DNA from: an uncultured Candidatus Saccharibacteria bacterium
Lineage (GTDB): Bacteria; Patescibacteriota; Minisyncoccia; Phycocordibacterales; XYD1-FULL-46-19
Assembly: GCA_964539475.1 (NCBI GenBank)
Contig: CAZIIR010000001.1
Location: forward strand, 2,869 to 66,868
DNA: 64,000 nucleotides
Reading direction: 5' to 3'
A model generated the notes under the pieces. That model was not told the DNA's origin, searched no databases, and saw only the letters and a list, made by a program, of their open reading frames with translations. A program made the translations under genes and the position numbers. Positions 7,914-36,000 of the stretch are shown here, in pieces. The number at the start of each line of letters is the position of its first letter. Within the stretch, counting starts at the first letter, position 1.

Positions 7914-8431
7914 AAAAGACACCATTACTTATTGAGTTTCCTCTTCCGTTGTTCGATGGGTTTTATCATTCTGTTTCTCAGGAAATGGCTGATACTTATG
8001 AGGAAAATTATCCCGACGAAGACCATTCGCAATATCATGAAAAAATAGCAAAAGGATTTCTTTCTTCCTTTAATAAATTAACTAAACAAGAATTTCAGTT
8101 TGTTAGAATTGATTCTCCAAAAGAATATAATTTTAATACTGATAAAATTATTGTAACCGGACGAAAGGAGAGACTAAGAACAATATGGAAAAATGTAAGA
8201 AAACTTCACAAAGATTTTAGTTGTTTTGAAGATGTTCTTCGTGAACAACTAACTCCTTGTGATGGTTTTATTCCATTTTATTCTAACGATCCATTAGACT
8301 GGCTTGCTAAAGATTTTGAAGAGTTTGATCAGAATGAGTTAGGTATTATTGTTGAAGCTTACTGTATGTTTAATGATGTTTACTTTGATGCAATTACCGA
8401 ACAACCAGAATACTACGAATCACTATCATGA
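7910..8431 (+). CDS. hypothetical protein
   Basis: Internal ATG with an ATGA overlap to the upstream stop. Confidence 0.5.
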   Translation: MKKTPLLIEFPLPLFDGFYHSVSQEMADTYEENYPDEDHSQYHEKIAKGFLSSFNKLTKQEFQFVRIDSPKEYNFNTDKIIVTGRKERLRTIWKNVRKLHKDFSCFEDVLREQLTPCDGFIPFYSNDPLDWLAKDFEEFDQNELGIIVEAYCMFNDVYFDAITEQPEYYESLS

Positions 8432-8470
8432 CTCCAGAAGCTAAAAAACTATGCAAAGACTTAGATCCAG

Positions 8471-8653
8471 ATGAATAAATATATTGGATATTTTAATGGC
8501 AAGCAGACTACTGTTGAAGCAGAGACTTCTTACGAGGCTCTACAAAAAGCTGTAGCTATTTTTAAGCCAGCTAAAAGTAAACAACACATGGTTCATGTTC
8601 ACTTGCATGAAAAGGATGGAAAGGCTATATATCACTCAACCGCTTCTTTATGA
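8471..8653 (+). CDS. hypothetical protein
   Basis: ORF track. Confidence 0.4.
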   Translation: MNKYIGYFNGKQTTVEAETSYEALQKAVAIFKPAKSKQHMVHVHLHEKDGKAIYHSTASL

Positions 8654-8820
8654 CATTTAAATATTTAAAAGATGCCATAGCTGAACTTTCTGATGAACAG
8701 CTTATGATGAATGCTTATATTCTAAGAGATAGGGAAATATATGTTCCTGATTCTTGTTTTCTTGTTAGTGAGATTAGAGAGCCATCTCTTGTTGAAAAGC
8801 TTGAAAATGAATATGCTTAA
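8650..8820 (+). CDS. small hypothetical protein (56 aa)
   Basis: ATGA overlap at 8650-8653, frame open to a TAA at 8818-8820. Confidence 0.35.
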   Translation: MTFKYLKDAIAELSDEQLMMNAYILRDREIYVPDSCFLVSEIREPSLVEKLENEYA

Positions 8821-9037
8821 GCGAAACTCAACCATTAATCATTATATGAAATCAGCAGATGATTCTTCGATAATGCCTTACGGCAAATACAATGGACAAC
8901 CGTTGGGAGATATTCCTGATAATTATATTAGATGGATGTGGGAAAATACTGACATCAAACATGAGATTAAAGAAGATACAGAGCGTGGTGCTATTGCTCG
9001 ATACTTTAAACTTGCATACGACAGCTTAACGAAATGA
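8807..9037 (+). CDS. hypothetical protein
   Basis: Internal ATG of ORF 8741..9037. Confidence 0.4.
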   Translation: MNMLKRNSTINHYMKSADDSSIMPYGKYNGQPLGDIPDNYIRWMWENTDIKHEIKEDTERGAIARYFKLAYDSLTK

Positions 9038-9073
9038 CGCTTTTTATAAAATAATCTTTTTTCAAAAAAGTCC

Positions 9074-9101
9074 TTGCATATTGTTTTTAGTGTGGTAGTA
9101 T
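9074..9101 (+). promoter_or_regulatory. sigma70-like promoter TTGCAT-N16-TGgTAGTAT (extended -10)
   Basis: Hexamers and the TGn element read from the sequence. Confidence 0.4.
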
Positions 9102-9107
9102 AGTGCA

Positions 9108-9222
9108 TAATAAACTTGTAGCCATCACCTACTGAGTTATTCGATCAATTTTGTTAGCTTTTTCGGCTGACGCAATTAGACCGAGCTTGAGTGTGTGATG
9201 GCCTCAAGCTCGGTCTTTTTGT
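9108..9222 (+). ncRNA. candidate ~115-nt small RNA bounded by a promoter and a strong intrinsic terminator
   Basis: No ORF. It lies between a promoter-like element and the terminator at 9178-9225. Confidence 0.4.
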
Positions 9223-9225
9223 TTA
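9178..9225 (+). terminator. rho-independent terminator (14-bp stem plus a T5 tract)
   Basis: agaccgagcttgag ... ctcaagctcggtct followed by TTTTTG. Confidence 0.75.
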
Positions 9226-9480
9226 CTTATCCAACTTCAATAAAAAAGGATAGCGGCCACCCGAAAGGATCGCAATGTGCCCAGAGAAAGTTACAGAGTT
9301 GAGAGGCTGTAAGTAAGGCGCAATATAAATATTATCACTGGTGAAAGGGGTTGTGTATTGTCGGCCAGTATAAAAGTAATGACTTTCGGTTCTCTCTTGC
9401 TCGCGGTTCAAAAGGACCGAGGGGTAAGGGGGTTTTGGATTGAGAGAGAAGAACAGAGTAAGACAGACCAAGGAAGCACC

Positions 9481-10194
9481 ATGAAGGAAGAATTAAACAC
9501 AGTAAGATACGGTAGAAAACTGTATCGCAATGAGTATTTAAAATCACCTGAATGGAGGCGATTACGCCTAAGAATACTTAGGTATGATAAACACAAGTGC
9601 TTCAAATGTAATTGTAAGGCAAGAGATGTTCATCACATGGATTACTCTATACTTGGAGCGCATCCTGTTAATGTGATTCGTTACCTTGTATCTCTTTGCA
9701 GGAAATGCCATGACAAAGTGGAGCTTGCCAAGAAATTAAACCTACTTCCTAAAGTTCATACAAGAGATCATATACGACTACTTGATTTCAACATCATTGA
9801 TCGCAACTACTCTAAGCGATTCAGGAAGACAATTATAGACACTGCTCTGTATAATAAAATTGTTAAGATTCCTCCTAATAGACATGCTCTAATAATGGGA
9901 ATACTTAAAGTTTCTTACTCAAAACCAATTGAGATTTGGGCTAAGGAAATAACAATGTCTCAGTATGATAAAATACTACAAGTAATAAACCATAAACAAA
10001 AGAGTGAGCAATATAAATATCAACTTCATCTATACAAAGAAATAAAGAAAGAAAAGAAAGAACTAAGCAAGGCTAAAAAGATAAAACGTGATGAAAAGAA
10101 ACTCAGAAGAAAAAGAAGAAAAGCAGAAGCGGCTCTCACTCAGGAGAGCCAACCGAGTAACAAGATCACCAAAAAGATTATTAAAACAATTTAA
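9481..10194 (+). CDS. HNH endonuclease with a Lys-rich C-terminal tail
   Basis: CFKCNCKARDVHHMDY...LCRKCHDKVE HNH/zinc motif. The start is moved to the ATG, and upstream lies a ~260-nt structured leader. Confidence 0.7.
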   Translation: MKEELNTVRYGRKLYRNEYLKSPEWRRLRLRILRYDKHKCFKCNCKARDVHHMDYSILGAHPVNVIRYLVSLCRKCHDKVELAKKLNLLPKVHTRDHIRLLDFNIIDRNYSKRFRKTIIDTALYNKIVKIPPNRHALIMGILKVSYSKPIEIWAKEITMSQYDKILQVINHKQKSEQYKYQLHLYKEIKKEKKELSKAKKIKRDEKKLRRKRRKAEAALTQESQPSNKITKKIIKTI

Positions 10195-10202
10195 AGAAAA
10201 AT

Positions 10203-10394
10203 ATGGAAAAACTAATAAAAACATTCCTTGATGGAAATATCGCAGAGGCAAAAGAAAGAGCAAAGGATTACACTAGAGTTCAAATTCAAGACTGTTTAAA
10301 TCGTAACTACGATTACTCTAAATATAAGTCTTTATTGATTGCTCTTTTTTTGAAAGACTTGGCTGTAATGTCAGAAGTATTAGATGCGGAATAA
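10203..10394 (+). CDS. hypothetical protein
   Basis: ORF track. Confidence 0.4.
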   Translation: MEKLIKTFLDGNIAEAKERAKDYTRVQIQDCLNRNYDYSKYKSLLIALFLKDLAVMSEVLDAE

Positions 10395-10395
10395 T

Positions 10396-10614
10396 ATGAC
10401 TATCACGACTAAATTTAATGTAGGAGATAAAGTTTGGCTTATTGAAAATAATTCAGCAATCCAAAAAACAATCAATAAGGTATTTACAGAAAGCGGATTA
10501 AAATACACAAGCAAAGGATATAAGTTAAATTTTACACTTAAAGAACAAGGTGAAAATGTTTATCCTGAGGAAGAATTATTCTCAACCAAAGAAGAACTAC
10601 TGGCATCACTATGA
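10396..10614 (+). CDS. hypothetical protein
   Basis: Internal ATG. Confidence 0.45.
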   Translation: MTITTKFNVGDKVWLIENNSAIQKTINKVFTESGLKYTSKGYKLNFTLKEQGENVYPEEELFSTKEELLASL

Positions 10615-11147
10615 AACTAATTGAACTACCAAACGGATCATGGATTGATCCACTTACTATTACGGCTATTAATGTAAGACGTTATAAGGATAATGTTACT
10701 CAAAAACCATGCGTTAACATTATCGGTCCTGGAGATATTAATAGTGTAATTTACTGTAAGGACGAAGAGTGTGTTGATATTGCAAGACTAATTGCTAAAC
10801 AAGTTAATGATGCGTGTAATAAAAGTATTACAGAGCAAAATAAAGAGTATATAGAAAAAACAAAAGAAGTTAAAAATAAAAAACTTTACCTTGCGTTACT
10901 TCCGCCTCAGGACGCATTTCTTTATGCTATAAAAGAATATGCAGATTTAGATGATGCATTTTTACTTAAGTCATTAAATGAAATAGATGAACTTGAGGAC
11001 AAATATGAAGGGGTGTATATTCACAGTATTAAAAATGAACAAATTGTAATCTGTGTTAATGACAAATATCTAACAACAATCTACTCAGCAGGACCAAAAT
11101 ACGCAACAGCAATCTACGAAACAGCAAAAAAACTAGCTAATAAATAA
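10611..11147 (+). CDS. hypothetical protein
   Basis: ORF track, ATGA overlap. Confidence 0.5.
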   Translation: MKLIELPNGSWIDPLTITAINVRRYKDNVTQKPCVNIIGPGDINSVIYCKDEECVDIARLIAKQVNDACNKSITEQNKEYIEKTKEVKNKKLYLALLPPQDAFLYAIKEYADLDDAFLLKSLNEIDELEDKYEGVYIHSIKNEQIVICVNDKYLTTIYSAGPKYATAIYETAKKLANK

Positions 11148-11150
11148 ATT

Positions 11151-11357
11151 ATGAACAACAAAAACAGAACAACAGAACAACGCAATCGTGACAAAATCCG
11201 CTACCTATTCCTTCAACAAATGAAGTTGTGTGGTAAGTCTTATAGCCTAAAAAGTCCATTCAGCGGAAAGAATAAAGCACAGCGAGCAAGGCTTGCTGGA
11301 TCATTTGCTTGTTTAAAAAACGGAATGCCAAGAATTGGTAATAATTTCAAATGGTAA
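11151..11357 (+). CDS. small basic hypothetical protein
   Basis: ORF track. Confidence 0.4.
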   Translation: MNNKNRTTEQRNRDKIRYLFLQQMKLCGKSYSLKSPFSGKNKAQRARLAGSFACLKNGMPRIGNNFKW

Positions 11358-15289: not shown

Positions 15290-15329
15290 GCGACAATAAA
15301 GTTCAATCCTTTGTTGTCGCACTTTTATT
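15290..15329 (+). terminator. hairpin plus U-tract terminator candidate
   Basis: gcgacaa / ttgtcgc stem followed by ACTTTTATT. Confidence 0.45.
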
Positions 15330-17931: not shown

Positions 17932-18008
17932 ACGCCTATAGCTCAGCGGTTAGTAGCGGGGATCTCATAAATCCTAGGTCGTTGGTTCGACTCCAACTAG
18001 GCGCACCA
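17932..18008 (+). tRNA. tRNA with anticodon CAU (Met or Ile2 type), CCA encoded, A1-C72 mismatch
   Basis: The cloverleaf was folded by hand. Acceptor acgccta/taggcgc, T-arm gttgg-TTCGACT-ccaac, anticodon loop CTCATAA, 3' ACCA. Confidence 0.8.
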
Positions 18009-19020: not shown

Positions 19021-19113
19021 TAAATTTATTACAAATTTTGGTTGAATCCAATTGGCCTAAACCAAACGACAAGCACAAGAAAAACAAACACGAAAAAAGA
19101 TAAAATACAAAAT

Positions 19114-20610
19114 ATGAAGACTCCAGACATCATTAAGTATAGCGACGACGAAAACGGCGACATTCTTCAACAGGACCGCAGTGAGGTTATTAAGAATATT
19201 GTTAAGCAATATAAAGTCAAACCTGTTGAGGGTAAGCCAGCGACTGAGGTTGTTAAAGACCTTTTGACTATGGCTTTCCGCGCCAAGGATGAAGACATCG
19301 AGCTTCCAGAAGATATGGAGCACTTGCAGAAAGTTGCTGACTATTGTAAGGAACTTGCAAAAGGTCATCGCGACATCTGCGACAAGGAAGCAGAAGAGGA
19401 AAAGCAAAAGAAGGCACTTAAAGCTCAACAGAAGACTCTTGAAAAAGAGGCTAAGGAAAAAGAGGATAAGCAGTATATTGAGAACGCTGCTAAATTTGAG
19501 GAAATTCTTGCTCGCAAGATCAAGGCTTCCGAGGAAAAAGTTAGCGCAAATGTTGTTGCTGCTGTTAAGGCAATCAATCTTCCTAAAACCATTTCCGTAA
19601 CTGGAAACGGTATGGGTATCGTTCTTTCTGAGAGCGCATCCAAGGATGATATTGCTACAGCTACCGCCAGCATGATGAGTGCTGCGGAAGGCAATGGTCA
19701 GATGATGGGTGCTTTGCAGTTCCTTATCGGTGACATTGTTAATGCCTCTGTGGACAAGAAGGTTTTCCGCACCAAGGGCGACGCTTGCAAAAACGTCAAA
19801 TACCTTGTTGAAGAAAAGCTTAATAAAAAGTTTAGCGCAGGAGCTATTAATGCAAACAGTCTTATGGCTGAGCGTATTCCTCCGCAGTATCGTAAGATCG
19901 GTGTTCTGCCATCCGTGTATCTCGCAGCCTCTAAGGTTGTCGCTCCACGGATCAAGGAACTTTCCGAGAAGGACGCTTCGGCACTTGTTGTTAAGTTCGA
20001 CGAAGGTCGTAATAATATGATTAGCCTGATCAATGATGGAACTATCACTTCCATCAAGGATTGTAAGGAATATGAACTCAAGCTTAAGCAGGAAGCTGGA
20101 TTGAATATTTCTCAGCCGGGCGAAGCAGGAAGACAGATTCAACGCTTCCTTCGTCGCTTGTTCTGGGCTATATGGGCTAAGCGTAACCTTGTTGATCCAG
20201 AAACTGGTATCGCTAAGTTCCATGAGCGCGATTGTGATGAGAATGCTCCTGCTGTTGAATACACAGTTGGTCAGTTGACTGACATTGAAGAAGAAGCTCT
20301 GAATAACCTTCAGAATCTCTTCCTTGTTGGTGAAGATGTTCCATCCATTATCAAAGGTTACACTGAGGTTGTGGATGAGAAAACCAAGGCGGTTGCTCAG
20401 GTTCCTAATCTTCTGGACGATCCTTTTGAAGACCCAAAACCAAAGGATAAGAAAGAGGAAGATAAGAAGGACGAGGAGAAGAAGGAAGACAAACCAAAGA
20501 GCAAGTCTAAGCCTACTCCTGAGCCAGAAGAGGAAGAAGATGAGGATGAAGATGAAGATGAAGATGAGGATGAGGATGAAGATGAAGATGAGGATGATTC
20601 CGACATCTAA
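19114..20610 (+). CDS. hypothetical protein with a long poly-(Glu/Asp) C-terminal tail (the start may be the upstream TTG at 19042)
   Basis: ORF track. Sensible composition compared with the 388-aa antisense ORF. Confidence 0.5.
   Translation: MKTPDIIKYSDDENGDILQQDRSEVIKNIVKQYKVKPVEGKPATEVVKDLLTMAFRAKDEDIELPEDMEHLQKVADYCKELAKGHRDICDKEAEEEKQKKALKAQQKTLEKEAKEKEDKQYIENAAKFEEILARKIKASEEKVSANVVAAVKAINLPKTISVTGNGMGIVLSESASKDDIATATASMMSAAEGNGQMMGALQFLIGDIVNASVDKKVFRTKGDACKNVKYLVEEKLNKKFSAGAINANSLMAERIPPQYRKIGVLPSVYLAASKVVAPRIKELSEKDASALVVKFDEGRNNMISLINDGTITSIKDCKEYELKLKQEAGLNISQPGEAGRQIQRFLRRLFWAIWAKRNLVDPETGIAKFHERDCDENAPAVEYTVGQLTDIEEEALNNLQNLFLVGEDVPSIIKGYTEVVDEKTKAVAQVPNLLDDPFEDPKPKDKKEEDKKDEEKKEDKPKSKSKPTPEPEEEEDEDEDEDEDEDEDEDEDEDDSDI
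20527..20598 (+). repeat. (GAR)n trinucleotide tandem repeat encoding an acidic tail
   Basis: gaagat/gaggat units repeated about 20 times. Confidence 0.6.
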
Positions 20611-20634
20611 TATTTAGATTAGAATAATCATCTG

Positions 20635-20670
20635 GCTACCATACAGTTCAAACCTGTATGGTAGCTTTTA
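20635..20670 (+). terminator. rho-independent terminator (12-bp stem plus a T-tract)
   Basis: gctaccatacag-ttcaaac-ctgtatggtagc followed by TTTTAAC. Confidence 0.65.
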
Positions 20671-26761: not shown

Positions 26762-27040
26762 TTACAAGTTAATCCTCGCTCTATTCTTCGCCTTCGACTG
26801 GAGGCGAAGATTAGTAATTTTATTAGTGCCTCCAGTTGATATTGGTTTCTTGTGATCTACGTCCTTATTCTTCATCATAGCTGATGCGCGTTTAGGTCCG
26901 TATTTCTTGGTAAGAAACACCTCCATATCACGCCTAGCTTTATTTCGCTGCGACCTCTGCTTTATAGTTTTTTTATTATAAAGCTTGTCTTTTGTGTAGT
27001 CTCTTCCGGTTGACTTATTATGGACTCGTTTCTTCTTCAT
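26762..27040 (-). CDS. HNH endonuclease, last gene of the late operon
   Basis: DVDHKKPISTGGTNKITNLRLQSKAKNR HNH motif. Confidence 0.55.
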   Translation of the reverse strand: MKKKRVHNKSTGRDYTKDKLYNKKTIKQRSQRNKARRDMEVFLTKKYGPKRASAMMKNKDVDHKKPISTGGTNKITNLRLQSKAKNRARINL

Positions 27041-30000
27041 ATGCAGCTAATTGTTCTTCGCGTTCTTTGCCTGATTTTTCGATTAAGCTACTTGCCCTAA
27101 AGTATCTCTTGATGTCTGGTTGTGATACACCAATCACTGCCGCAAGATTTACAAAATCCAGTGGTGATATAGCCTCTGGTTTTTGAAAGAACTTAGAACC
27201 GCTTTCAATAGCATCGACTATTCCTTCCACCGTTCCACCAAAACTTCCACCGATATTAGCAATTGTTCTTTGCTCATATACGGCAGGAAGAAACTCTTGC
27301 ATCTGAATGTTTGCCAACTCTTCACTTAGAAGAGTTACAGTCTTACGGTTTTCAAGAGCCTTGTGTCTTTTGATTAGTTTTTGGATTCGATCAATTTCTC
27401 CTTTTTTCCAAGCCTTGAAGGTTTCAGCCTCTGGTCCGTCAGATCCTACATGAATAATTATATTAGGAACAGCTTCAAGGTTAAACGGAATAAACATGTT
27501 AGATGCTGCATCCTTTACTGTCTTGATTGAAAGAATCCTTGTGTTGTTAGTTCTGTTTTGAATATTCTGAATAACCTTACGATTCTTTTCTCTCATAGAA
27601 ATCTCAGCATTGAGTGTGCGACGCTCATTTTTTGTCATTCTATTTTGAGACTTAGAGTAAAGCTTTTTTAATTCCTCCTCTTCTTCTGGATTCTTCAATG
27701 CATGAACAATAGCGGCAGCCATTCCATACTGAACTGCATATGCCATCATTGTATATGTTACAGATTGAGCAGCAATACCCATCATGTATTTAAATGATTT
27801 GGCTTTTTGTTCTCTACTTACATCTGAATCAAAAAGCCTTCTCATTTCCTTTCCAAAGTTTACAGCGTTATTGATCGAGAACGACCTAAACGCTATTAAT
27901 AAATTTCTTGCAATACTTATTTTAGCATCCTTGTTAGTGAGATACTCACCACGACGAGAAGCATCACCAATACCTATATAACGCTCTGTTGCGTCAATAG
28001 CTTTTATGTATGACACTGGATCGTATGTAAGGTCTTCAAGTCTGACATGAGTTCCTTTTGAGTCCTGTTCAGCATTAAGGTATTCAGCAAGTGCCATAGG
28101 AGCACCTGACAATGTATCAGAAAGCCTGAATGCTTTAAACAGAATATTTTCGATTCCTTTATCAACACCAACTACTGCCCTATACAAATAAGGCATTTCC
28201 TTTTTCATCATTTCAACTAATGAGCTAGGATTAATATCCAGATTAACTGATTTGTCGATTTCTTGGAATTGCTGGCGATGAGTTACTTCAAAGATAACCT
28301 TATCCACAAGTCTTGCTTGATGAGGTTCAAGCATTCCCATTCTGTGTTTTAATAAATATGTTGCAGCTTTAAAATAGTTGCCAATTTTGTGTGGCTCATT
28401 AATGTGCTGAACAAAGTATGGAGTAGTATTTGAAACAAGCTGTGCTGGCAACTGATGTAAACCAGACAATACGCCCTGAGCCCATTTTCTTCCAACCCAG
28501 TTTGTAGCAACATGGTATGAATGCATGTATGATGCTTGAGACATCACATTCTGCCACGTTCCATTCATCGCACTTCTGAATGCATCTGTCCGACCTCTCT
28601 TTTGTTCTGGATCACCTAAGAACTTAGCAAACAATTTTCCATTCTTGTTTTTGTGATTCAGCAATTGAGACATCTCCTGTCTTGCATGTGCTGTAAAATA
28701 ATCATACACAGCAATCCTGCCAAGAGACTCACCGGCATAATTTATATTAAACACAAGAGAACGATTTGTTCCTATTTTTCTTGTTCTCGACTTAGTAGAA
28801 CCAAGTCCAGTTGTATTTGTTCCATAAAATATTTGTCCAGAAGAGAATGATTGAGCATCAGTTAGCATTTGAGCTTTGGCGATATCAAAATCTGTATCAC
28901 CTTCACCTTTGATGATAACTGACATTGTTGGAATGTAGTTCTCGATTTCCTCAAATGGTCTTCCATAAATAAACTCTGTAGTGAACTTAGAAAGAGGTTT
29001 TAGTGCATCATACATCTTAACGATACCATCTGCATATTGGATTCCCTTGTCTCCAATAAATATATTAGCATTCTGGTAGAATTTAGCAACATCTTCTGGT
29101 GTGAAGTCAGAAGTAAGTTGTCCATTTTCTATAGTGTAGTTAATACCAGACAGGAAGTTATCTTCAAGATACTCTTGATGACGCTTTCCTTGTGCATCAA
29201 AGTCTCTATCGTAAACTCCAATAGTATTTTTATTAGAGTCAAGAACCCATTGGACGCTTGCTTTAAATCCCTCTTCAGGAGATTCAACTAATTTTCTTTG
29301 ACGAAGGATTCCAAACATTCCTATCTTGTTAGCCATGTCAGCATCAAGAACACCGTTATAAACATCACTTTGAAGTGATTCAATGTATGGTGTAATAACT
29401 TCTTCGTGATACCGTTTAGCAAGAACAAGACCTTCACGGAATGGTGCTTGAAGACGAGTCAAAAGATCGTAAGAATAACCATCGGTTGCAAGTCGTTCAA
29501 TCTGACTTGAGTTAGATTCAAGTTTAGATATGTCAGAGTTCTTTTTTCTTGTCCCGTATGGGTCACTAAACGTGGCCTCCATGTTTCTAATGATATCTGT
29601 TGTCTCACTACTAATAAATCCCTCAAGACGATTTGGATAGCCATCAGTAACAAGACTAAGAAGTGAGTAATAAACTCTGCGTAAATCTCCACCACTAAGA
29701 GATGTTGCATCCGTAGTAATTAAACTAAGCGCGTATTCATTAAATAGCTTACGCATTATTGCAACTTGTTCTCTTAGAATTGGAATACCATTATCCAAGA
29801 TTGGATTACCTGTCTCTACAAGGCTGCTATCAAGATCAACAACTCCACGGTTAATAATATCACTAATATCATCAATTGCTTCAATAGCTTGGAACTGGAG
29901 ATCAACAACAGCATCCATTGTTGCAATGTCAGAGTCGTTAATAACAACGGATGCAAGATCATCGTTCTTCTCTTGAATAAGGTCTTGAAAGTGTTTTCTC

Positions 30001-33000
30001 GCAGCGCCAGCGTCTTCATTAAAGAATGCAAACTCAGGAAATCCCTCTACTCGACTTGCGTAGAACTCGTATTCGTTTTTGTTAGCTTTCTTTTTATAGT
30101 CGATCAAACGCTGTTCAAGTGTGTCAACAGGAATCCTTTCAGTGGCAGGATTTTCCTGTTTGTTGCGAGTATTAACAAAGTCTTGATAATCAGCCAAGAA
30201 AGCCTCTACGTCATTATCGTTAAGGAATGCGTATGGAACACCTTTGAAAGCGTTGTTGATTTGAATTTCTTTACCCATGAGTTTTTGCTCATAAGTTCTC
30301 TTGATTAGTTTAGCTATTTCCTTAGAAGCTTTGGATTTAGATTGTGTAATAATTTCATTATCAGTCACAATCCAATCAAGATCGTTGTCTTCTGTTGGTT
30401 CTACTGGAGCTTTTTGTTTAGGCTGTGATTTGCTAAAACGAATGTCTGGAGAATTAGAGAATCGTTGAGACAAAGGAATTACATTACCTTGATCGTCTTT
30501 TGTAACAGGGTCTGAGGATTTAAATTGAGAAGAATCAAACCCAGCAATTGCGTCTGCTTCTTGCTCTGCGCTTTTTTCTCGTAAAAGAAAACCATCAAAA
30601 CCAGCTTCCAGTAGTTCTTTTTTTAACTGCCCCTTGTTTAATCTCTCAAAAACTGGACTCTGCATTCCATTGCTTGGCTTGGCCTTAACTCCCAACGATT
30701 GGACAAATGTATCAAATTCCTGGTTGCTAACACTTCCAGATCCAAGCTGCCGAAAATCTGCCGGATTTGAAATATTATGATAAAGACTCAATGATTTATC
30801 TCCAAAAAGTTGAGAATACTTTTTGTTTTCTGTGACGTATATCAACCCAACACCATCTGTCTTAATAGGAGATACCAAAAAACTTCTTCCTGTTGAGGTT
30901 AATATATTTCTAATCCTTCCAAATATATTAAAATCAGAATTTGTTGAATGAATAACCATAGATGGTTTGTATCCAGCCTCTTTAGCAGCCTCATCAACCA
31001 TCTTTTGAGCGGTGTCTAAATCACCAGACTTAACTGCCGCCAAGTATTTTTGATCTTTAACATTATTATTAGGCTGTGATTTACTAAATCTAAGTAGTCC
31101 ACGGTTTTGTGGAACACTGAACATGTATCCGGTGTTGGTGTCTTTATTAAACACAGCAGACTTACCTTTTCCGTGCCTACCAACTGTTACTTTTTTAGGT
31201 TGTGAGTTAGTAAGTTTTTTAAGACCGTTAGGAACGCGCTCGTCGTATGCGGCTTTCATTCCTGACTCTTGTTCTATTTTTGGAACTGATTTTTTTAACA
31301 GATCAGCTCTAACTGTTTCTCCATCATAAGTTGTTAAGCGATAGATATTACCGTCTGGTCCTTCTGATTTTATTCCAGGTATAGCTCCTTCGCTTCCATC
31401 TGCCATTGTATAAGTAGTATCAATATCAGTCCTGGGAATCCAATCATCTGGCATTTTAATGTTACCATTATTATACGATGCATTTTCTATAATATCTCCA
31501 TCTTTTTCTGGATTTGCAAGTTCATAAATATCACCAACTTGATCATGCCCCTCAGTCATCATTGCTGTTTCAGCATCGCTTGTAATAATTTTATCAGCAC
31601 CTTGTTCTTGTGCAAAATTAACAGCGGCTTTAAGTGCAAGTGATTCCCAATAGTTTAGGAGCGGAGATGAAATATCTTCTCCAAGACTTTCCCATTTATC
31701 AATAAGAAGAATATTGTCTTCTTTAGATATTACTTCATTTTCTTTATATTTATAAATATCAACACCAGTATCTTCTGCTTCTCGTTTTGTTAAATGCAAT
31801 GAATTAGACGACCCTTTTTTGCTAATAGTAATAGAATCATCTAAAAGCTCTATTACAAGATCAGATTTTTTATAACCATCTAATCTATTTTTGTCTCTAC
31901 TTAATTTTCCAGCCCAATCGCTTTGAACTTCCCATATTTCAAGAATGCGAGTTGGTTTAGTTGCGGTTGTTCCGTCTGGTAGTTTGTTTCCAGTTTGGTA
32001 TTCATGGATACCACCACGAACGAATGCTAGTTGGTTTGCTTTAACACTACCTTCGTAATGCTGAGATTCAAATTTAGGTTTTGGAGTTACTGTTGCTCCT
32101 GTGTCTCTTACGAATACAGTAATTGTTCTATTTTCATCGTAAATTGAAGACTCAGATGTTGTTACAAAATACCTAGGTTCTGGATATTTATTTTGAAACT
32201 CCTCAAGCTTACCTTCCTTTTCTTCTATTGGAAAGGATTCTTTTACAATATATTTATTATCATATAAAGAATTATCTATTTTATTTAAAGAAGATGATTC
32301 TTCACTTGGAAGTGGAACATTCAAACTCAAATCACCAGACCAAATAAGCTTATGTCCAGGCTCGATTTCTTCACCTTTAAGTTGTTCGTTTGAGTATGGA
32401 TCTACTCCGTATTTTCCGGTGGCAGAGCTATTTTTTGCCGCTAAGAAACTACCGGTAGAATATAGTTCAATATATTCATTAGCAAGTTTCTTTGCATTTT
32501 CTGGAAGTTCTTCTAATTTAACACCACCAAATGTTTTAAATACAGCAGTTTCACCAGTAAACATTGGAGCGTCAGGCGCAAACCCAATGGTTTCTAGTTC
32601 GTGCTGAACAACACCAACTGTTCTGCTTAATGCGCCACCACTAAAATCTAACTTATTTATTACAACAGTAGGAACTGTGTCGATCACTTCCGCCAGTTCC
32701 GACATATTAACACGACCATTTTTTGATAAATCGTTAACAAGTTGTGTCAGTGTATCAACCTCAAACTCAGTAGCTCCTGATTTTTTGATCTTAGCTGCAA
32801 GGTTTTGAGAAGGAAGAGTTCCATCTTTAGCCACAACAAGACCCATTACATTTTCAGGGTCTTTTAGTTGGTCAGCAAGACGAAAATCAAACTGGTTGGT
32901 TGAACGACTAAAGCGAGTTGCTGCTGGAGTTTTGTATAAATACTTATCTCCCATTATAACATTTTTATCACTGTTCATTCCTGCGAACTCAAGAACAGCT

Positions 33001-36000
33001 TTTTGAGATGAATTAAGTTTATACTGCTCATCAACAAGGATTGACGATCCGTTTATGACACGAAGATAACCACGTTTAGCCATTTCTGCATAAACCTGAG
33101 TAACCGTCATTCCTTCTATAGCTTCTTCGCCAATAATGTCAATAGCTTTTCCAAGATGGTCTTGATAACCAACATCGATTATTTTTCCATTAGGCGCAAT
33201 CCAAGCTCCGTATCCACGAATAACAGAATCCATGTAAACTGATTGGTGGGATTTGGAATACTGTATTTCTCCATTTGTTGTTATATCAGAATCAAAAGCG
33301 GTCTGAATAATAATATCAAGATCATTAACTGTCCAGTTTGCTGTCCCTGCTTTCAGGAACTTAATACGAATCCAATTAACAATCTTTTCAATAATTGATT
33401 TTGATTCTTTATCCTTTCCTTCTGTTAGTTTAGCAAAAATTTCATCAACAATTTCATTTTCTGTTAAGTTTTCTTTTGCATATGCAGCACTTGTTCTTTC
33501 CCAAACATTTGAACCGTCTCTCCATTTAAGGGTTTTTAAGAATGTAACTAAATTATTAAACCCTTCTTGGCTAATGCCAGAAAGAACGCCACTTAGTTTA
33601 AGATGACCAACAACTTCATGTTTAAATATTCTTTCTACCGCTTCCACATGTGACTCTCCTTTATGTGGAATAATATTATCAAGAATAATTGTAACATTGC
33701 CTTTTTGGACAAAAGCTTCAACGATGCTCGTAACATCTTCACGATTTAATTCCTCGTGTGTGTTTACGATCTTAAGGTCTTTCAGTCCAACGTCTTTTGC
33801 AAGCTCGTTAATTCTGTCAGTCTGCTCTTTTCTGCGAGCTATGTTTTCAGGAGTGTTTTCGCGTTGTTTGGCAAGAGTAGCTTGTGATTCTTCTCTGAAC
33901 TGCTCAATCTCTTGTTGAAGAATATCTAAAATATCAGGCTCGGATTCTTCAACCGGAGCGGTGTCTTGAACAGGAGCAATGGTTTCTTCAATAGCCTGCT
34001 CGACGGTTTGTTTAGGTGCTTTCTCTTTACCTTTCTTGATTGCAGTTTGAATGCTTTGTGCAAACTTATACAAGTCTCCATCGTAAGATGGAACACCATA
34101 TATTTCTGCAAGCTGTGGAAAGTTAGCTTCTGAAAGAAATCCACGACTAATTAAATTATTAAGACGATCTCCAGTAAAGTCACCTTTTTTAGAAAGTGAA
34201 ACAATCTGCATTAATGTTCCTCGATCAACTTCCTGTGCTGGCTGTTGTTCTGGATTTTCTTTTTTAGCAGTGAGTTCAGCAAGCTTAATTCTTGATGCGC
34301 TTTTTTGGCTTTCTGTATATTCACCACTCTTATCATTAATAACTTTATTATGAAGCGCAATACGATCTTCAATTGAAATTTGAACATTTGGCTGAATACG
34401 AGCCTTGTCTGCTTCTAGTTTTCCTATCCAATCTTTAGAGCGTATTTTTTGTTGTTCGGTTGCATTGTCGTCGTTTAATATTTTGTTGTGATAAGCCAAT
34501 GCCTTATCAATGCTTTCAATAGCTGCGCTTGGATTCTCAGTCTCATTGATCTGGTCAATGGTTTCGATTGTTGGAAGAACTGGTTCTGGTTCTACTGTAG
34601 GTTCTACGGTATCTTCTTCAACAGGCTCTACCGCAGGTGTTTCCACAGGCGTTTCCACAGTTTCTTCAACTGGAGTTTCAGCTTTTTTCTTTTTTCGTGA
34701 CGATGGCTTTTTAACTTTTGGAGCAACAACTTTCTTTCCTTCTGGAGTATTTTTATTAAGCTTTTCTGTTGCTTCATCTATTCTGGTTTGATCAATTGTT
34801 TCTGTTTCAACAACTGGAGCTTGTGTTTTTTCCAACTCATTGTAACGAGTTAGCTCAGTTGGTGTAATAGTATTATTAATCTTTTTTTCAAGCAAGTTTT
34901 CAAACTCTGCTTTATCTTTGTTATCAATAACTTCACTATCATCAACAAGAGAAGTCTTAGGCTTAACTTCTGCTGGATCAATTGCTTCCGCTGGTTCTTT
35001 AGTGGCAACTTCATTAGCTTCTCTGACTTGAGCTAATATTTTTATTTTGTTTCCAGTTACAACGACAGGAACCCACCCAACTTGTGGATTAACAGAAGCT
35101 TCGTATCTTTTAGCTAGTCCTTTAAATTTAACAAATCTCCTGTTAGGTGTTACCTGTAATGTAACAGGTGCTCCTAATGCTTTTATTAGGTTGGCGTTTT
35201 TAACCAATGCCATTCCTTCTTGTTTTACATAAATAACATTATCATTCTTTAGTTTGGTGTCATCATTAAGAGTAACATCAAATGGCTTCTTGGTTTGAAG
35301 CTGCTTATCTTCTCCTTTTAATATGAAATTTGTATCATTAGACTCAAACTCAGTTTCTTCTTGAAAAGCAATAGGACCAGCCGATGTTCCATCATCGTTT
35401 ATCTTTTCAAACAATCCTCTTGCTTTTTTTAACCTTTCAAGTTTATCTTTGTCTTTTACTGGATCAAGGTCTTTTTCAATTTTATTAAGCTCATCGGTAT
35501 ATGGCTTATTTGCAATTCTAATTTTAGACTGCTCTGGAAGAACCTCTCCAAGTCTTTCTTTTAGAGTAGCTTCTGCTTTGTCTTTGATCGGAGTTCCAGA
35601 AGGGTCGAGAGATGGCTTGGTATCTCCCTTAATAATTTTATCAGGAGCTTTTGCTGTGACATTAGAATTAGCTATTTCAATAGCCTTGTCGTAGTTACCC
35701 GCTTTGATAGCATCAAAGATTTTTAACTCTTTAGCTTTTGTGTCAGCAATACTAACTGTTTTACCAGCATCAGTTAATTGTGCAATAGTTGCAGAAACAT
35801 TAGCTTGGTTTGATCCTTTTGTTAATCCAGCTATTCCAGTACCAACCATTGCACCAACTGTTCCTTCGACAGCAAATGAACGAGCAAGCTCTCCGATATT
35901 AGTAGCATTCTTTAAATACTGCTCATCTCCAGTTGCATAGTAATCACCAAGGTTTCCGGCTACATCTGTTCCTACTCCACCAAGCAAGCCTTCGTTTAAA

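Follow-up and report, generated by a model that had tools for sequence, protein, structure and literature searches.

In phage lambda, the promoter PR′ is closely followed by the terminator tR′, both located ahead of the genes regulated through Q, and a short RNA is the default product. In phage HK022, the put RNAs represent promoter-proximal structures that bear on transcriptional read-through and that lack pairing with a terminator loop. Terminators and leader hairpins are also known to repress free-standing HNH and GIY-YIG endonuclease genes of phages (PMC2988022), and for mobE, segF, segB and I-TevI of T4-like phages this repression has several layers (PMC2988022). Here, we analysed a non-coding stretch between two genes of an uncultivated phage (positions 9038-9480 of the 64-kb stretch of DNA under study, hereafter the window). 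It holds a promoter-like sequence, a short structured RNA ending in a terminator and a GC-rich leader, all placed ahead of a gene for an HNH endonuclease. The cassette looks like a previously undescribed RNA control element, or a small RNA, gating expression of the nuclease; in the literature, we found no description of such an RNA element.

Genomic context and relatives of the cassette

The sequence features that a preliminary description of the region had named are all present where it had placed them. It had also seen no credible ORF in the gap, and comparison with homologues bears this out: indels of 1, 2 and 4 nt break every frame on both strands, which rules out a conserved small ORF as well. 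The cassette lies between complete ORFs and interrupts no gene.

We found the cassette in 13 metagenomic loci, in which it occurs as five sequence variants, always in the order promoter, RNA, leader and HNH gene. All true relatives were obtained via the protein-cluster route. Searches of GenBank phages, by megablast with the region and with 24 kb of structural genes and by blastn with the region, gave no match, and tblastn with the HNH protein returned only one Lactobacillus phage HNH with 28% identity. Protein-anchored searches of IMG/VR (HNH, upstream ORF and UvrD helicase) yielded no relatives. Exact-pattern scans of viral, metagenome and genome collections with the invariant leader block and the promoter core produced no true homologues; two candidates (L012 and L013) proved to be chance matches within a membrane-protein gene, and a third (L014) is only a look-alike Bacillus promoter.

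The flanking genes vary between loci while the cassette stays. The upstream gene is a 77-aa QSregVF_b-like ORF in the window, a 98-aa ORF in locus L002 and an 89-aa ORF in locus L005, and homology between the window and L002 is limited to about 9030-10040, with flanks that cannot be aligned. Among the loci found, the short RNA never occurs away from an HNH gene. The same slot accommodates two HNH alleles with 34% identity, and the leader type tracks the HNH type: leader A accompanies HNH proteins of 214-237 aa, and a different leader of ~320 nt accompanies the 152-aa HNH of L005. In three loci (L008-L010), the HNH core has been lost by an in-frame deletion and the short RNA has been retained unchanged. 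No relative with an empty site was found. More distant HNH homologues are likewise preceded by long gene-free stretches. Part of the conservation in this highly mosaic phage group may stem from recent recombination instead of selection. We also considered terminal inverted repeats of a mini-element; this idea was dropped, since the sequence is constant in the interior and variable in the 'repeats'.

Putative promoter region

A promoter-like site of the sigma-70/sigma-A type is present on the + strand at 9074-9101, as judged from sequence reading and conservation. It comprises the -35 hexamer TTGCAT (9074-9079), a 16-nt spacer that ends in TGTGg (9091-9095) immediately 5′ of the -10 hexamer, and the -10 hexamer TAGTAT (9096-9101). 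The sigma70-like promoter proposed in the preliminary description is thus real as a sequence feature, single-copy in the 64-kb window and conserved, and it agrees with the consensus at only 3/6 positions of the -35 and 4/6 positions of the -10 hexamer, a weak match. The generic promoter scan placed the site below threshold and left it unlisted; in the same scan, promoter-like sites were not enriched in the region (24 found vs 27 expected). The -35 hexamer and spacer are the same in 13/13 related loci, even in the one that has diverged most; two forms of the -10 hexamer, TAGTAT and TATTGT, occur among these loci. Upstream of the -35 hexamer, an A/T-tract block (TAAAATAATCTTTTTTCAAAAAA, 9047-9069, + strand), unique in the window, is nearly invariant among the five variants, with differences at only two bases between the T-tract and the A-tract, and appears to resemble an UP element. 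Judging from spacing alone, transcription is predicted to start at about 9107-9109.

The generic scan detected no promoter-like site from the terminator T1, described below, to the HNH start codon, so HNH expression should need read-through. A candidate internal HNH promoter found by eye, TTATCA-N18-TATTGT, was rejected for want of proper TG spacing.

The predicted short RNA and its terminator

Downstream of the promoter-like site, the + strand RNA is predicted to fold into three hairpins. The first of them, P1 (9113-9138), has in the MFE fold 8-9 bp, one bulged U and a 7-nt loop, CCAUCAC (9122-9128), and is fully paired in 5/5 variants despite their differing stem sequences. It is followed by a linker (9139-9152), delineated from alignments and from stepwise and constrained folds, which is invariant in the four window-type variants and which, in the folds of nascent RNA, pairs with the lower 5′ arm of the terminator. 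Hairpin P2 (9153-9171; 7 bp with the loop UUUUC in the MFE fold) also caps the alternative rod discussed below. Two of its pairs have changes on both sides (alignment A10), and it is missing from the L005 lineage.

The third hairpin belongs to the intrinsic terminator T1 (9178-9224), which has the expected make-up of a GC-rich hairpin followed by a U-tract on the transcribed strand: a 14-bp stem (9178-9191/9203-9216) with 8 G-C pairs, an 11-nt loop (9192-9202) and a U-tract (9217-9224; tail UUUUGUUU). In our own scan, T1 is the most stable combination of hairpin and T-run in the 64 kb, at -26.6 kcal/mol, and the earlier statement that a strong terminator lies ~115 nt past the promoter is therefore well founded. 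The generic terminator scan missed T1 because it capped loops at 8 nt. In L005, the T1 stem has a different sequence and is nevertheless paired in 14/14 positions.

The segment as a whole (9105-9225) folds with a z-score of -6.2 relative to shuffles, and compensatory base changes are seen in the short RNA. Its predicted product, with transcription ending at 9217-9224, would be a terminated RNA of ~110-116 nt. A covariance model of the short RNA, searched against the window and L005, revealed no second copy in the window and recognised the L005 version through the terminator only (E = 0.017). Comparison of the whole window with Rfam (4227 families) at the gathering threshold returned nothing but tRNA, and permissive searches (E <= 10 over 8800-10400; E <= 5 at the L005 locus) returned only noise.

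Covarying loops and an alternative fold

A new finding is that the loops of P1 and T1 are complementary to each other in three different sequence versions, namely CCAUCAC/GUGAUGG, CGGCAA/UUGCCG and GUGGUA/UACCAC. Each of these complementary runs is attained by just 0.45-1.5% of composition-preserving shuffles. In alignment A10, four of the 6-8 pairs of this loop-loop helix are changed on both sides, and the covariation score, which rests on five distinct sequences with three versions of the loop pairing, is matched by only 0-1 of 500 shuffles; in slid controls, the paired fraction drops to 16-51%. In locus L015, both flanking genes have 100% identity to those of the window, yet the locus bears another matched loop pair, and thus the two loops change together.

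Complementarity does not stop at the loops; it extends over 19 nt (79%) in the window and over 21 nt (76%) in L005. As a result of covariation analysis and MFE folding of nascent RNA, we delineated an alternative rod (9121-9202, + strand), a putative antiterminator. At its base, GCCAUCAC (9121-9128) pairs with GUGAUGGC (9195-9202); further along, the helix is continued by the 3′ arm of P1 and the linker on one side and the T1 5′ arm on the other, and P2 forms the cap. In nascent RNA, the rod has an energy of -33.0 kcal/mol (z = -4.7) vs -18.8 for the P1 state. The order of folding, computed as stepwise thermodynamic folding rather than as a kinetic simulation, runs from P1 through P2 and the pairing of the linker with the T1 arm to the rod, which reaches -39.2 kcal/mol at 9214. 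The rod is the MFE structure of the nascent RNA from about 9198 to 9214, and the terminator fold overtakes it only at 9216 (-41.4 kcal/mol). In these computed folds, the rod occupies the 5′ arm of T1 and can arise while the 3′ arm is still to be transcribed, as is typical of attenuators. L002 behaves in stepwise folding like the window; in L005, the nascent RNA does not favour the rod (-25.3 vs -26.6 kcal/mol) and T1 wins easily.

The same 6-8 bp could instead form a loop-loop kiss between P1 and T1. Changes on both sides of a pair are confined to the basal (loop-loop) helix and P2, and the rod-specific middle section is invariant apart from two wobble-compatible changes; therefore, a pure loop-loop kiss within a stand-alone sRNA fits the covariation equally well.

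The leader and the HNH endonuclease

T1 is followed by a 255-nt leader that is rich in GC and purines. Its G+C content is 0.44-0.45 vs about 0.32 in the surroundings, with a strong excess of G over C, and the GAAAGG and GGGGTAAGGGGG tracts reported earlier are present. The leader had also been described as structured. What holds of this is that it is conserved and non-coding and that one hairpin in it, T2, is kept; its overall fold is no better than that of shuffles (z = -0.64). For the conserved GC- and G-rich domain (9226-9390, + strand), RNAalifold predicts a multi-helix fold with helices 9232-9238/9347-9353, 9247-9252/9333-9339, 9253-9273, 9276-9281/9317-9322, 9291-9296/9307-9312 and 9354-9372. 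In the alignment, all 216 of 216 cells of this fold are paired and none is broken, and nine pairs vary on one side and one on both, a result that is indistinguishable from shuffles, the covariation being too thin to prove the fold. Sequence conservation is high: block 9300-9360 has 95-97% identity between the window and L002, as compared with 58-95% for the HNH gene. A role as a replication origin or an R-loop primer was also considered for this G-rich, purine-rich leader.

The terminator-like hairpin T2 (9392-9436) consists of an outer G.U-rich stem of 11 bp (9392-9402/9422-9432), an inner hairpin (9404-9419) and UUUU (9433-9436). It is the second most stable hairpin with a T-run on the + strand of the window (-23.2 kcal/mol); its tail is merely UUUU, followed by GG. 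Three variants share this architecture, each with an inner hairpin of its own (z = -3.6 to -5.2), the apical part having been replaced three times with the hairpin retained. The G.U-rich stems form only in RNA of the + strand. No conserved antiterminator for T2 was found, the predicted partners differing between alleles. In the remaining purine-rich spacer (9437-9480), a ribosome-binding site, AAGGA (9470-9474), precedes the ATG by 6 nt. The folds show no stable hairpin over this site of the kind known from T4, and no leader peptide with a ribosome-binding site is visible in the sequence.

The gene that follows (9481-10194, + strand; 237 aa) encodes, as proposed, an HNH endonuclease of the beta-beta-alpha-metal fold, an assignment supported by its motif, PHROG families, an AlphaFold model and matches to PDB folds. 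The ORF carries the CxxC...HH...CxxCH motif and matches nine PHROG families, eight of which are annotated as HNH endonuclease (E down to 2.6e-8). Residues C40, C43, H51, H52, C73, C76 and H77 are invariant in 17 homologues. The Pfam HNH search missed the window protein and matched its L005 orthologue. The AlphaFold model (pLDDT 84) places the HNH domain at the N-terminus, followed by a helical domain and, at the C-terminus, a long basic helix. Against the PDB, only HNH folds were matched, including the phage GVE2 HNH and Cas5-HNH structures, and a generic HNH domain is all that the fold search pointed to. A RuvC domain is absent from the protein; IscB or Cas9 chains were matched weakly and by the HNH domain alone (E >= 1). 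The gene is a candidate free-standing homing endonuclease gene.

Proposed mechanism and alternative explanations

The sequence features and their conservation, taken with the covariation and the competition between two folds, suggest a promoter-proximal RNA switch of the terminator/antiterminator type that gates transcription into the HNH endonuclease gene. We give this model about an even chance; promoter activity, termination, switching and the effector in it would work as follows. Transcription would start near 9108 from the conserved host-type promoter (9074-9101), and the first ~115 nt of RNA could adopt either of two mutually exclusive computed folds. In fold A, made up of P1, P2 and T1, termination at 9217-9224 would release the ~110-116-nt RNA, in which the P1 and T1 loops may kiss through 6-8 Watson-Crick pairs. 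Fold B is the long rod with P2 as its cap; here, the T1 loop and the T1 5′ arm would be taken up in pairing with the P1 loop, the P1 3′ arm and the linker, and the terminator would lose its 5′ arm, allowing read-through. Fold B can precede synthesis of the T1 3′ arm and, on thermodynamic calculation, is ~2 kcal/mol less stable than fold A at the point of decision. The read-through fraction is probably set kinetically or by a putative factor binding P1, its loop or the linker. Transcripts that read through would enter the conserved 255-nt leader and meet T2 ahead of the ribosome-binding site. Since T1 and T2 both precede the gene, the nuclease gene would be reached only by transcripts passing two barriers.

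The preliminary description had regarded the layout as that of a discrete small RNA gene. A promoter-to-terminator unit of ~110-116 nt does exist, and it resembles a cis-acting terminator/antiterminator switch at least as closely as an sRNA gene, since the covarying pairing builds a competing rod. It is nonetheless possible, though we lean against it, that the ~115-nt RNA is itself the functional product of a stand-alone gene, acting in trans or binding a protein, and that the HNH leader is a separate matter. The covarying pairing would then be a loop-loop kiss, either intramolecular and compacting or intermolecular, giving dimers or rings as in the phi29 pRNA. The discrete, unique and conserved promoter combined with the strongest terminator of the window speaks for such a gene, and so does the placement of the complementary bases exactly in the two hairpin loops (6-7 nt and 8-14 nt), the classic geometry of a kissing complex. 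L005 retains loop complementarity though its rod is not favoured, the RNA is unchanged in L008-L010 with their deleted HNH core, and the linker is invariant, single-stranded in the terminated fold and seed-like. A kiss alone, however, leaves unexplained both the complementarity past the loops and the pairing of the linker with the T1 arm. Nor is there a convincing target: complements of the linker are only marginally enriched in the window, with 7 further sites at <= 3 mismatches, all on the minus strand, vs about 3 expected, and all of them lie inside ORFs or antisense to them. Moreover, the RNA was not found apart from an HNH gene. A stand-alone product and the switch are in any case compatible, because terminated leaders can also act in trans. 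An unlikely explanation is that T1 merely ends an upstream (early) operon, with the promoter serving HNH and the genes downstream and the RNA structure having no role of its own; the short RNA would be a by-product, like the 6S RNA of lambda PR′-tR′, awaiting a phage antiterminator protein. The upstream genes are indeed all on the same strand, the terminator scan of the window detected no terminator ahead of T1, no strong terminator-like hairpin comes before T1 and T2 when the + strand is followed from its left end, and the layout is like the lambda arrangement of a constitutive promoter and a short terminated transcript before regulated genes. This explanation does not account for the three covarying loop pairings, the preserved P1 and the near-isoenergetic rod. 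T1 is also not simply the end of the gene upstream, as that gene varies by lineage and the promoter, the RNA and the terminator are kept.

Two further ideas concern the relation between the RNA and the nuclease. We consider it distinctly unlikely that the ~115-nt RNA, alone or with the leader, works together with the nuclease module or assembles with itself. In the first case, it would bind and either restrain or direct the HNH protein, and the system would be a homing nuclease under RNA control or a relative of type III toxin-antitoxin loci that has no repeats; in the second, complementary loops would give rise to dimers or rings, and loop alleles would be determinants of compatibility between competing phages. 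If the latter were true, the different matched loop pairs of the otherwise identical window and L015 would represent selection for new specificities. Direct partnership of the short RNA and/or the leader with the HNH protein, as an antitoxin-like inhibitor (type III) or as a guide or scaffold (omega-RNA, IscB), we regard as very unlikely. It would explain why the cassette and the HNH gene always occur together, why the leader type switches along with the HNH type and why distant homologues also lie behind long gene-free stretches; the long basic C-terminal helix and the uncharacterised helical domain of the protein are suggestive, and promoter, RNA, terminator and nuclease follow each other in the order of type III toxin-antitoxin loci. 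Against it, a search of 9000-9520 revealed no tandem repeats (minimum score 30), whereas ToxI-like RNAs come as arrays of ~36-nt repeats; neither ToxI nor HEARO nor any other Rfam family was matched, RuvC is absent from the protein, which has generic HNH matches only, nothing in the RNA was identified as a guide, and the RNA outlasts deletion of the HNH core. Hardly credible, finally, is the suggestion that the RNA is a remnant of a group I intron or another self-splicing or ribozyme RNA that once housed a homing endonuclease gene. Phage HNH genes are generally associated with group I introns and the leader is GC-rich and contains GNRA, but neither Intron_gpI nor any ribozyme family was matched even at E <= 10, no interrupted host gene is evident around this intergenic cassette, and the HNH ORF follows the structured RNA rather than lying within a peripheral intron loop. 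The intron-derived origin raised in the preliminary description is thus not supported.

Significance and comparison with known systems

Should the switch model hold, the cassette would represent a new compact switch of ~115 nt outside the 4227 Rfam families, in which the competing structure has at its core two loops, one from an early hairpin and one from the terminator itself, whose pairing has arisen anew in three sequence versions. It would also show how, in an uncultivated phage lineage, a potentially self-damaging HNH nuclease is kept in check by two barriers to transcription, and it would provide a small test system for co-transcriptional folding, for which natural alleles make the compensatory mutants obvious. 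More generally, complementarity further upstream may mask intrinsic terminators that look 'strong' from their hairpin energy, a point that matters for the annotation of phage small RNAs. If instead the terminated RNA is the active product, it would found a new family of phage sRNAs, whose loop-loop interaction is of a rare kind and well supported.

The HNH gene itself shares features with the homing endonuclease genes of T4-like phages: it is intergenic, appears to depend on terminator read-through and lies behind stable leader hairpins. Among the relatives of the cassette, the locus is also found with a divergent allele and with a copy that has decayed, both in keeping with the life cycle of homing endonucleases. 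In T4, however, terminators are inside the coding region or hairpins cover the ribosome-binding site, whereas here the two hairpins are upstream and the site is free, and neither a dedicated conserved promoter nor a covarying switch is described for the T4 cases. With the lambda PR′-tR′ and put systems, the cassette shares a promoter with a terminator shortly behind it, ahead of genes that would be regulated, a short RNA as the predicted default product and the possibility that promoter-proximal RNA structure influences read-through; it has no sequence or structural similarity to lambda 6S RNA with Q or to the HK022 put RNA, and we identified no Q-like or Nun-like gene. A structured non-coding RNA directly upstream of a nuclease ORF is also seen in HEARO/IscB omega-RNA and ToxI systems, and type III toxin-antitoxin loci likewise have a terminator between the RNA and the nuclease gene; the present locus differs from HEARO/omega-RNA and ToxI in having no Rfam match, no repeats and a plain HNH protein with a helical domain and no RuvC.

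As in kissing-loop RNAs such as ColE1 RNA I/RNA II, CopA/CopT and phi29 pRNA, the cassette has fully complementary 6-7-nt loops that covary from one relative to another, and the flanking stems are partly complementary, so a kiss could grow into an extended duplex. The phi29 pRNA family has no Rfam match here and the phage is not visibly related to phi29-like phages. Unlike in ColE1, CopA/CopT and phi29 pRNA, both hairpins reside on one strand of one short RNA, not on opposite strands or different molecules. Terminator/antiterminator attenuators, including trp-type leaders, riboswitch platforms and T-boxes, also feature a promoter-proximal leader in which the 5′ arm of the terminator can pair upstream; as in these systems, an early hairpin (P1) competes with the alternative structure and the two folds are nearly isoenergetic at the decision point. 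The cassette departs from them in having no leader peptide and no match to a known aptamer, T-box or protein-binding leader family, and, unlike in attenuators, the best-conserved part of its alternative helix is formed by two hairpin loops.

Results

Between a 77-aa ORF (stop at 9037, +; QSregVF_b-like motif) and a 237-aa HNH nuclease ORF starting at 9481 (+), within the rightward gene block, lies a small RNA element with clear boundaries, which represents a new RNA family and whose long-range pairing genuinely covaries. All the features named in the preliminary description were found in the sequence. The promoter-like site (+) consists of TTGCAT (9074-9079), a 16-nt spacer and TAGTAT (9096-9101); TGTGg immediately precedes the -10. 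It is weak relative to the consensus (3/6 at -35, 4/6 at -10); both the site and the A/T-tract block just upstream are unique within the window. A generic promoter scan did not list 9074-9101, detected no excess of promoter-like sites in the region and none between the terminator and the HNH ATG. A look-alike promoter, TTGCATATTGTTTCGAGTGTGGTATATAAT, occurs in a Bacillus sp. contig (NZ_JAGTPU010000057.1, 3925-3948, −); it agrees with the phage site at all 22 bases that the search pattern specified, and the sequence downstream of it is unrelated. Together with the TGTGg motif, this look-alike hints at a Firmicute-type host polymerase. As for the 237-aa protein, eight of the nine PHROG families that it matches are annotated as HNH endonuclease, it has the invariant CxxC...HH...CxxCH residues common to 17 homologues, and its AlphaFold model (pLDDT 84) matches only HNH domains in the PDB; its score is below the Pfam HNH threshold.

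The short RNA of about 115 nt is composed of three successive hairpins, P1 (9113-9138, +), P2 (9153-9171, +) and the terminator T1 (9178-9216, +, followed by UUUUGUUU). Segment 9105-9225 folds far better than its shuffles (z = -6.2). In our own scan of both strands T1 is the most stable hairpin-plus-T-run in 64 kb (-26.6 kcal/mol); the generic terminator scan missed it because its loop is 11 nt long. In each variant P1 and the T1 stem have all or nearly all of their pairs, as has P2 wherever present; the divergent locus L005 lacks P2 and builds P1 and T1 from other sequence, with 9/9 and 14/14 pairs. The 7-nt loop of P1 is fully complementary, in Watson-Crick pairs, to a segment of the T1 loop, and this in three sequence versions: CCAUCAC with GUGAUGG (window and L016), CGGCAA with UUGCCG (L001, L002 and L015) and GUGGUA with UACCAC (L005). 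With closing bases counted, the pairing reaches 7-8 bp. When each loop is shuffled with its composition kept, runs as long as these three arise in only 0.45%, 0.5-0.7% and 1.5% of the shuffles. In a four-sequence alignment both sides have changed in 4/6 loop-loop pairs and in two P2 pairs. The fold including the loop-loop kiss has 97.7% of its cells paired; 1/500 shuffles attains its score, and in slid-partner controls the pairing falls to 16-51%. Searched with a covariance model of the short RNA, the window contains one copy.

Neither pattern scans nor protein-anchored scans found a true homologue in IMG/VR, the JGI metagenomes or the GTDB genomes. Relatives were recovered from a large protein-cluster collection. 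Queries with the HNH protein and with the 178-aa product of a neighbouring gene led there to 12 contigs that stem from independent sequencing runs; together with the window these represent five distinct versions of the promoter-to-terminator unit. These genomes are sharp mosaics, in which blocks of 100% identity abut unalignable ones (window 8400-11200 against L015, L001, L005 and L002). The homology between the window and L002 is confined to about 9030-10040, which comprises the promoter, the RNA, the leader and most of the HNH gene, and the flanking genes on either side are unrelated. The unit therefore travels with an HNH gene and not with the upstream gene, which meets the objection foreseen in the preliminary description, that T1 may serve the upstream gene alone. 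L015 has both flanking genes 100% identical to those of the window, yet the RNA region between them is the most divergent part (68-88% identity) and carries the other loop pair, which implies that the P1 and T1 loops were exchanged or selected together. In L005-L007, the promoter agrees with the other variants in its -35, its spacer and the A/T block upstream, and its -10 has the TATTGT form seen in L001; the short RNA has strongly diverged, and the leader is replaced by a different sequence of about 320 nt; the same genomic slot encodes a 152-aa HNH protein with 34% identity to that of the window. An alternate-frame ORF overlapping the 3' end of the window HNH ORF (10088-10231, +) encodes RVTRSPKRLLKQFKEKYGKTN, identical to the C-terminus of this 152-aa protein, so that the two alleles share 3' junction DNA read in different frames. 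L008-L010 have promoter, short RNA and leader identical to L002 and an in-frame deletion of the HNH catalytic core. About 459 nt between two AAAGCA repeats have been lost (L008 5193-5378, likewise L009 and L010, against L002 2337-2981), so that the catalytic HH motif is gone along with the C-terminal domain and a 61-aa remnant is left. No empty site was found at the HNH locus among these relatives.

The preliminary description of the region as non-coding holds: homologues differ by 1-, 2- and 4-nt indels in 9280-9480 and inside the T1 loop, so no reading frame is kept on either strand. The 255 nt following T1 have a G+C content of 0.44-0.45, against about 0.32 around, and a strong excess of G over C. 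RNAalifold predicts six helices in 9226-9390 plus a second terminator-like hairpin, T2. In these leader helices 216/216 cells are paired, with nine pairs variable on one side (all kept via G·U) and one on both; the covariation among the four sequences is not distinguishable from shuffles (134/500), and the single-sequence fold is unremarkable (z = -0.64). T2 is better supported than the six-helix fold. Its G·U-rich outer stem of 11 bp (9392-9402 with 9422-9432, +), followed by UUUU, adjusts by wobble among variants and encloses a small hairpin that reads CGGUUC-AAAA-GGACCG in the window, CUUGAGC-GCAAA-GCUUAAG in L015 and CUUUUGC-CAAG-GCUUAAG in L002. Among the hairpin-plus-T-runs on the + strand of the window T2 ranks second in stability, and its many G·U pairs mean that the structure exists in + strand RNA only. 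We found no conserved antiterminator for T2, and no hairpin covering the HNH ribosome-binding site in the folds. In the central leader block 9300-9360 the window and L002 share 95-97% identity, with the HNH gene ranging from 58% to 95%; such conservation in so mosaic a group is no more than suggestive.

The window covers most of an uncultivated AT-rich phage genome, with genes oriented rightward to about 27 kb and leftward beyond; the window sequences searched have no nucleotide match among GenBank phages. A 3316-aa ORF (27018-36968, −) has no Pfam or PHROG match and five further large ORFs, four on the leftward strand, have no family matches either, so this is in effect an uncharacterised phage lineage. 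The sole Rfam/ARAGORN match in the window is one tRNA-Met (CAT) gene (17932-18008, +). A run of GAAGAT/GAGGAT-type 12-15-nt repeats (20438-20597, +) at the 3' end of a 522-aa ORF (19042-20610) encodes its acidic Asp/Glu-rich tail. A second conserved gene-free, C-rich stretch (7239-7446; G+C 0.45-0.47 against about 0.32 around) precedes a 155-aa ORF, recurs in L016, L015, L002 and L008, and has no Rfam match; RNAalifold gives four pairs changed on both sides and a positive (unfavourable) covariation term, and the stretch may be another structured RNA or leader. Two terminator-like hairpins with 12-bp stems (about 15290-15321 and about 20632-20664, +) have near-identical loops, GUUCAAUCC and GUUCAAACC, which are similar to the inner-hairpin loop of T2 (GGUUCAAAAGG) and to tRNA T-loops, and may represent a phage-specific terminator or protein-binding loop motif. 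Distant homologues of the HNH protein (P0014, P0011) in unrelated phage-like contigs also adjoin gene-free stretches of 324 nt to about 1.2 kb (L018 4613-4937 and 5635-6836; L017 1369-2417), and the upstream one in L018 has several stable hairpins, one terminator-like. A link between this HNH family and structured leaders may be more general.

Discussion

Sequence comparison establishes the P1-loop:T1-loop pairing. This pairing may be a tertiary contact, a kiss, of the terminated RNA, or the basal helix of an antiterminator, or it may serve in both ways. In sense/antisense hairpin pairs, progression of a kiss into an extended duplex is known behaviour. The complementarity found by the repeat finder goes beyond the loops: in the window 9115-9133 and 9190-9208 are complementary over 19 nt (79%), and L005 has a corresponding stretch of 21 nt (76%). 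Before the 3' arm of T1 exists, the RNA folds into a long rod (9121-9202) capped by P2, in which the P1 loop, the P1 3' arm and the invariant linker (9139-9152) pair with the T1 loop and the T1 5' arm; its energy is -33.0 kcal/mol (z = -4.7), compared with -18.8 for the best fold leaving the P1 loop free. Stepwise folding of the window sequence forms P1, then P2, then the linker with the lower T1 arm, and then the rod. At 9214 the rod stands at -39.2, having added CUUG (9115-9118) with CAAG (9205-9208), and only at 9216 (-41.4) does the terminator fold overtake it. L002 behaves in the same way. The L005 rod has only about the same energy as an alternative 5' fold, and there T1 clearly prevails. 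The alignment accommodates the rod and the kiss equally well (rod: 96.8% paired, 0/500 shuffles). The covarying pairs are identical for both, and the rod-specific middle is invariant except for two wobble-compatible changes. We favour the switch because it explains the extra complementarity beyond the loops and the invariance of the linker, whose partner must also pair within T1, and because the rod and the terminator fold differ little in stability when the decision falls. Complements of the linker with up to three mismatches also occur at seven sites outside the locus, all on the minus strand, where about three are expected by chance, a marginal enrichment. Those at 27383, 31471, 49382, 56035 and 62495 (all −) lie inside leftward, presumably late, transcripts, the best being 56035-56050 with two mismatches.

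In the most probable reading the element is a cis-acting switch, and the predicted small RNA is what it releases in the OFF state. Our confidence is moderate, as the reading draws on only five sequence variants. Transcription would start at the host-type promoter, and the nascent RNA would choose, perhaps in response to an effector, between the rod, leading to read-through, and P1 plus T1, leading to termination and release of an RNA of about 110-116 nt. Read-through RNA would still have to clear T2 before HNH translation. Of this scheme, the sequence features with their conservation and covariation and the two competing folds are observed computationally; the activity of the promoter, the terminating step and the choice of fold with its effector are inferred. 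In T4 and its relatives, free-standing phage endonuclease genes are tightly repressed, in layers, by terminators and leader hairpins (PMC2988022), which provides a biological rationale for such a gate. The occurrence of a second, divergent HNH allele in this slot, and of a decayed copy, would fit the life cycle of a homing endonuclease. The observation made in the preliminary description is accordingly confirmed and its interpretation partly supported; the part left unsupported is an intron-derived RNA, which has no Rfam intron match at E <= 10 and to which the gene context runs contrary. A group I intron fails on both counts.

The Rfam search of the region returned nothing, either at the gathering threshold or at E <= 10, and so matched none of the described leader, riboswitch or T-box families. 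Type III toxin-antitoxin loci and IscB/omega-RNA have the same gene order as this element, but their RNA and protein signatures are absent here, and there are no repeats. With kissing-loop RNAs the element shares the pairing of loops, and in its proposed mode of action it would work like the terminator/antiterminator attenuators.
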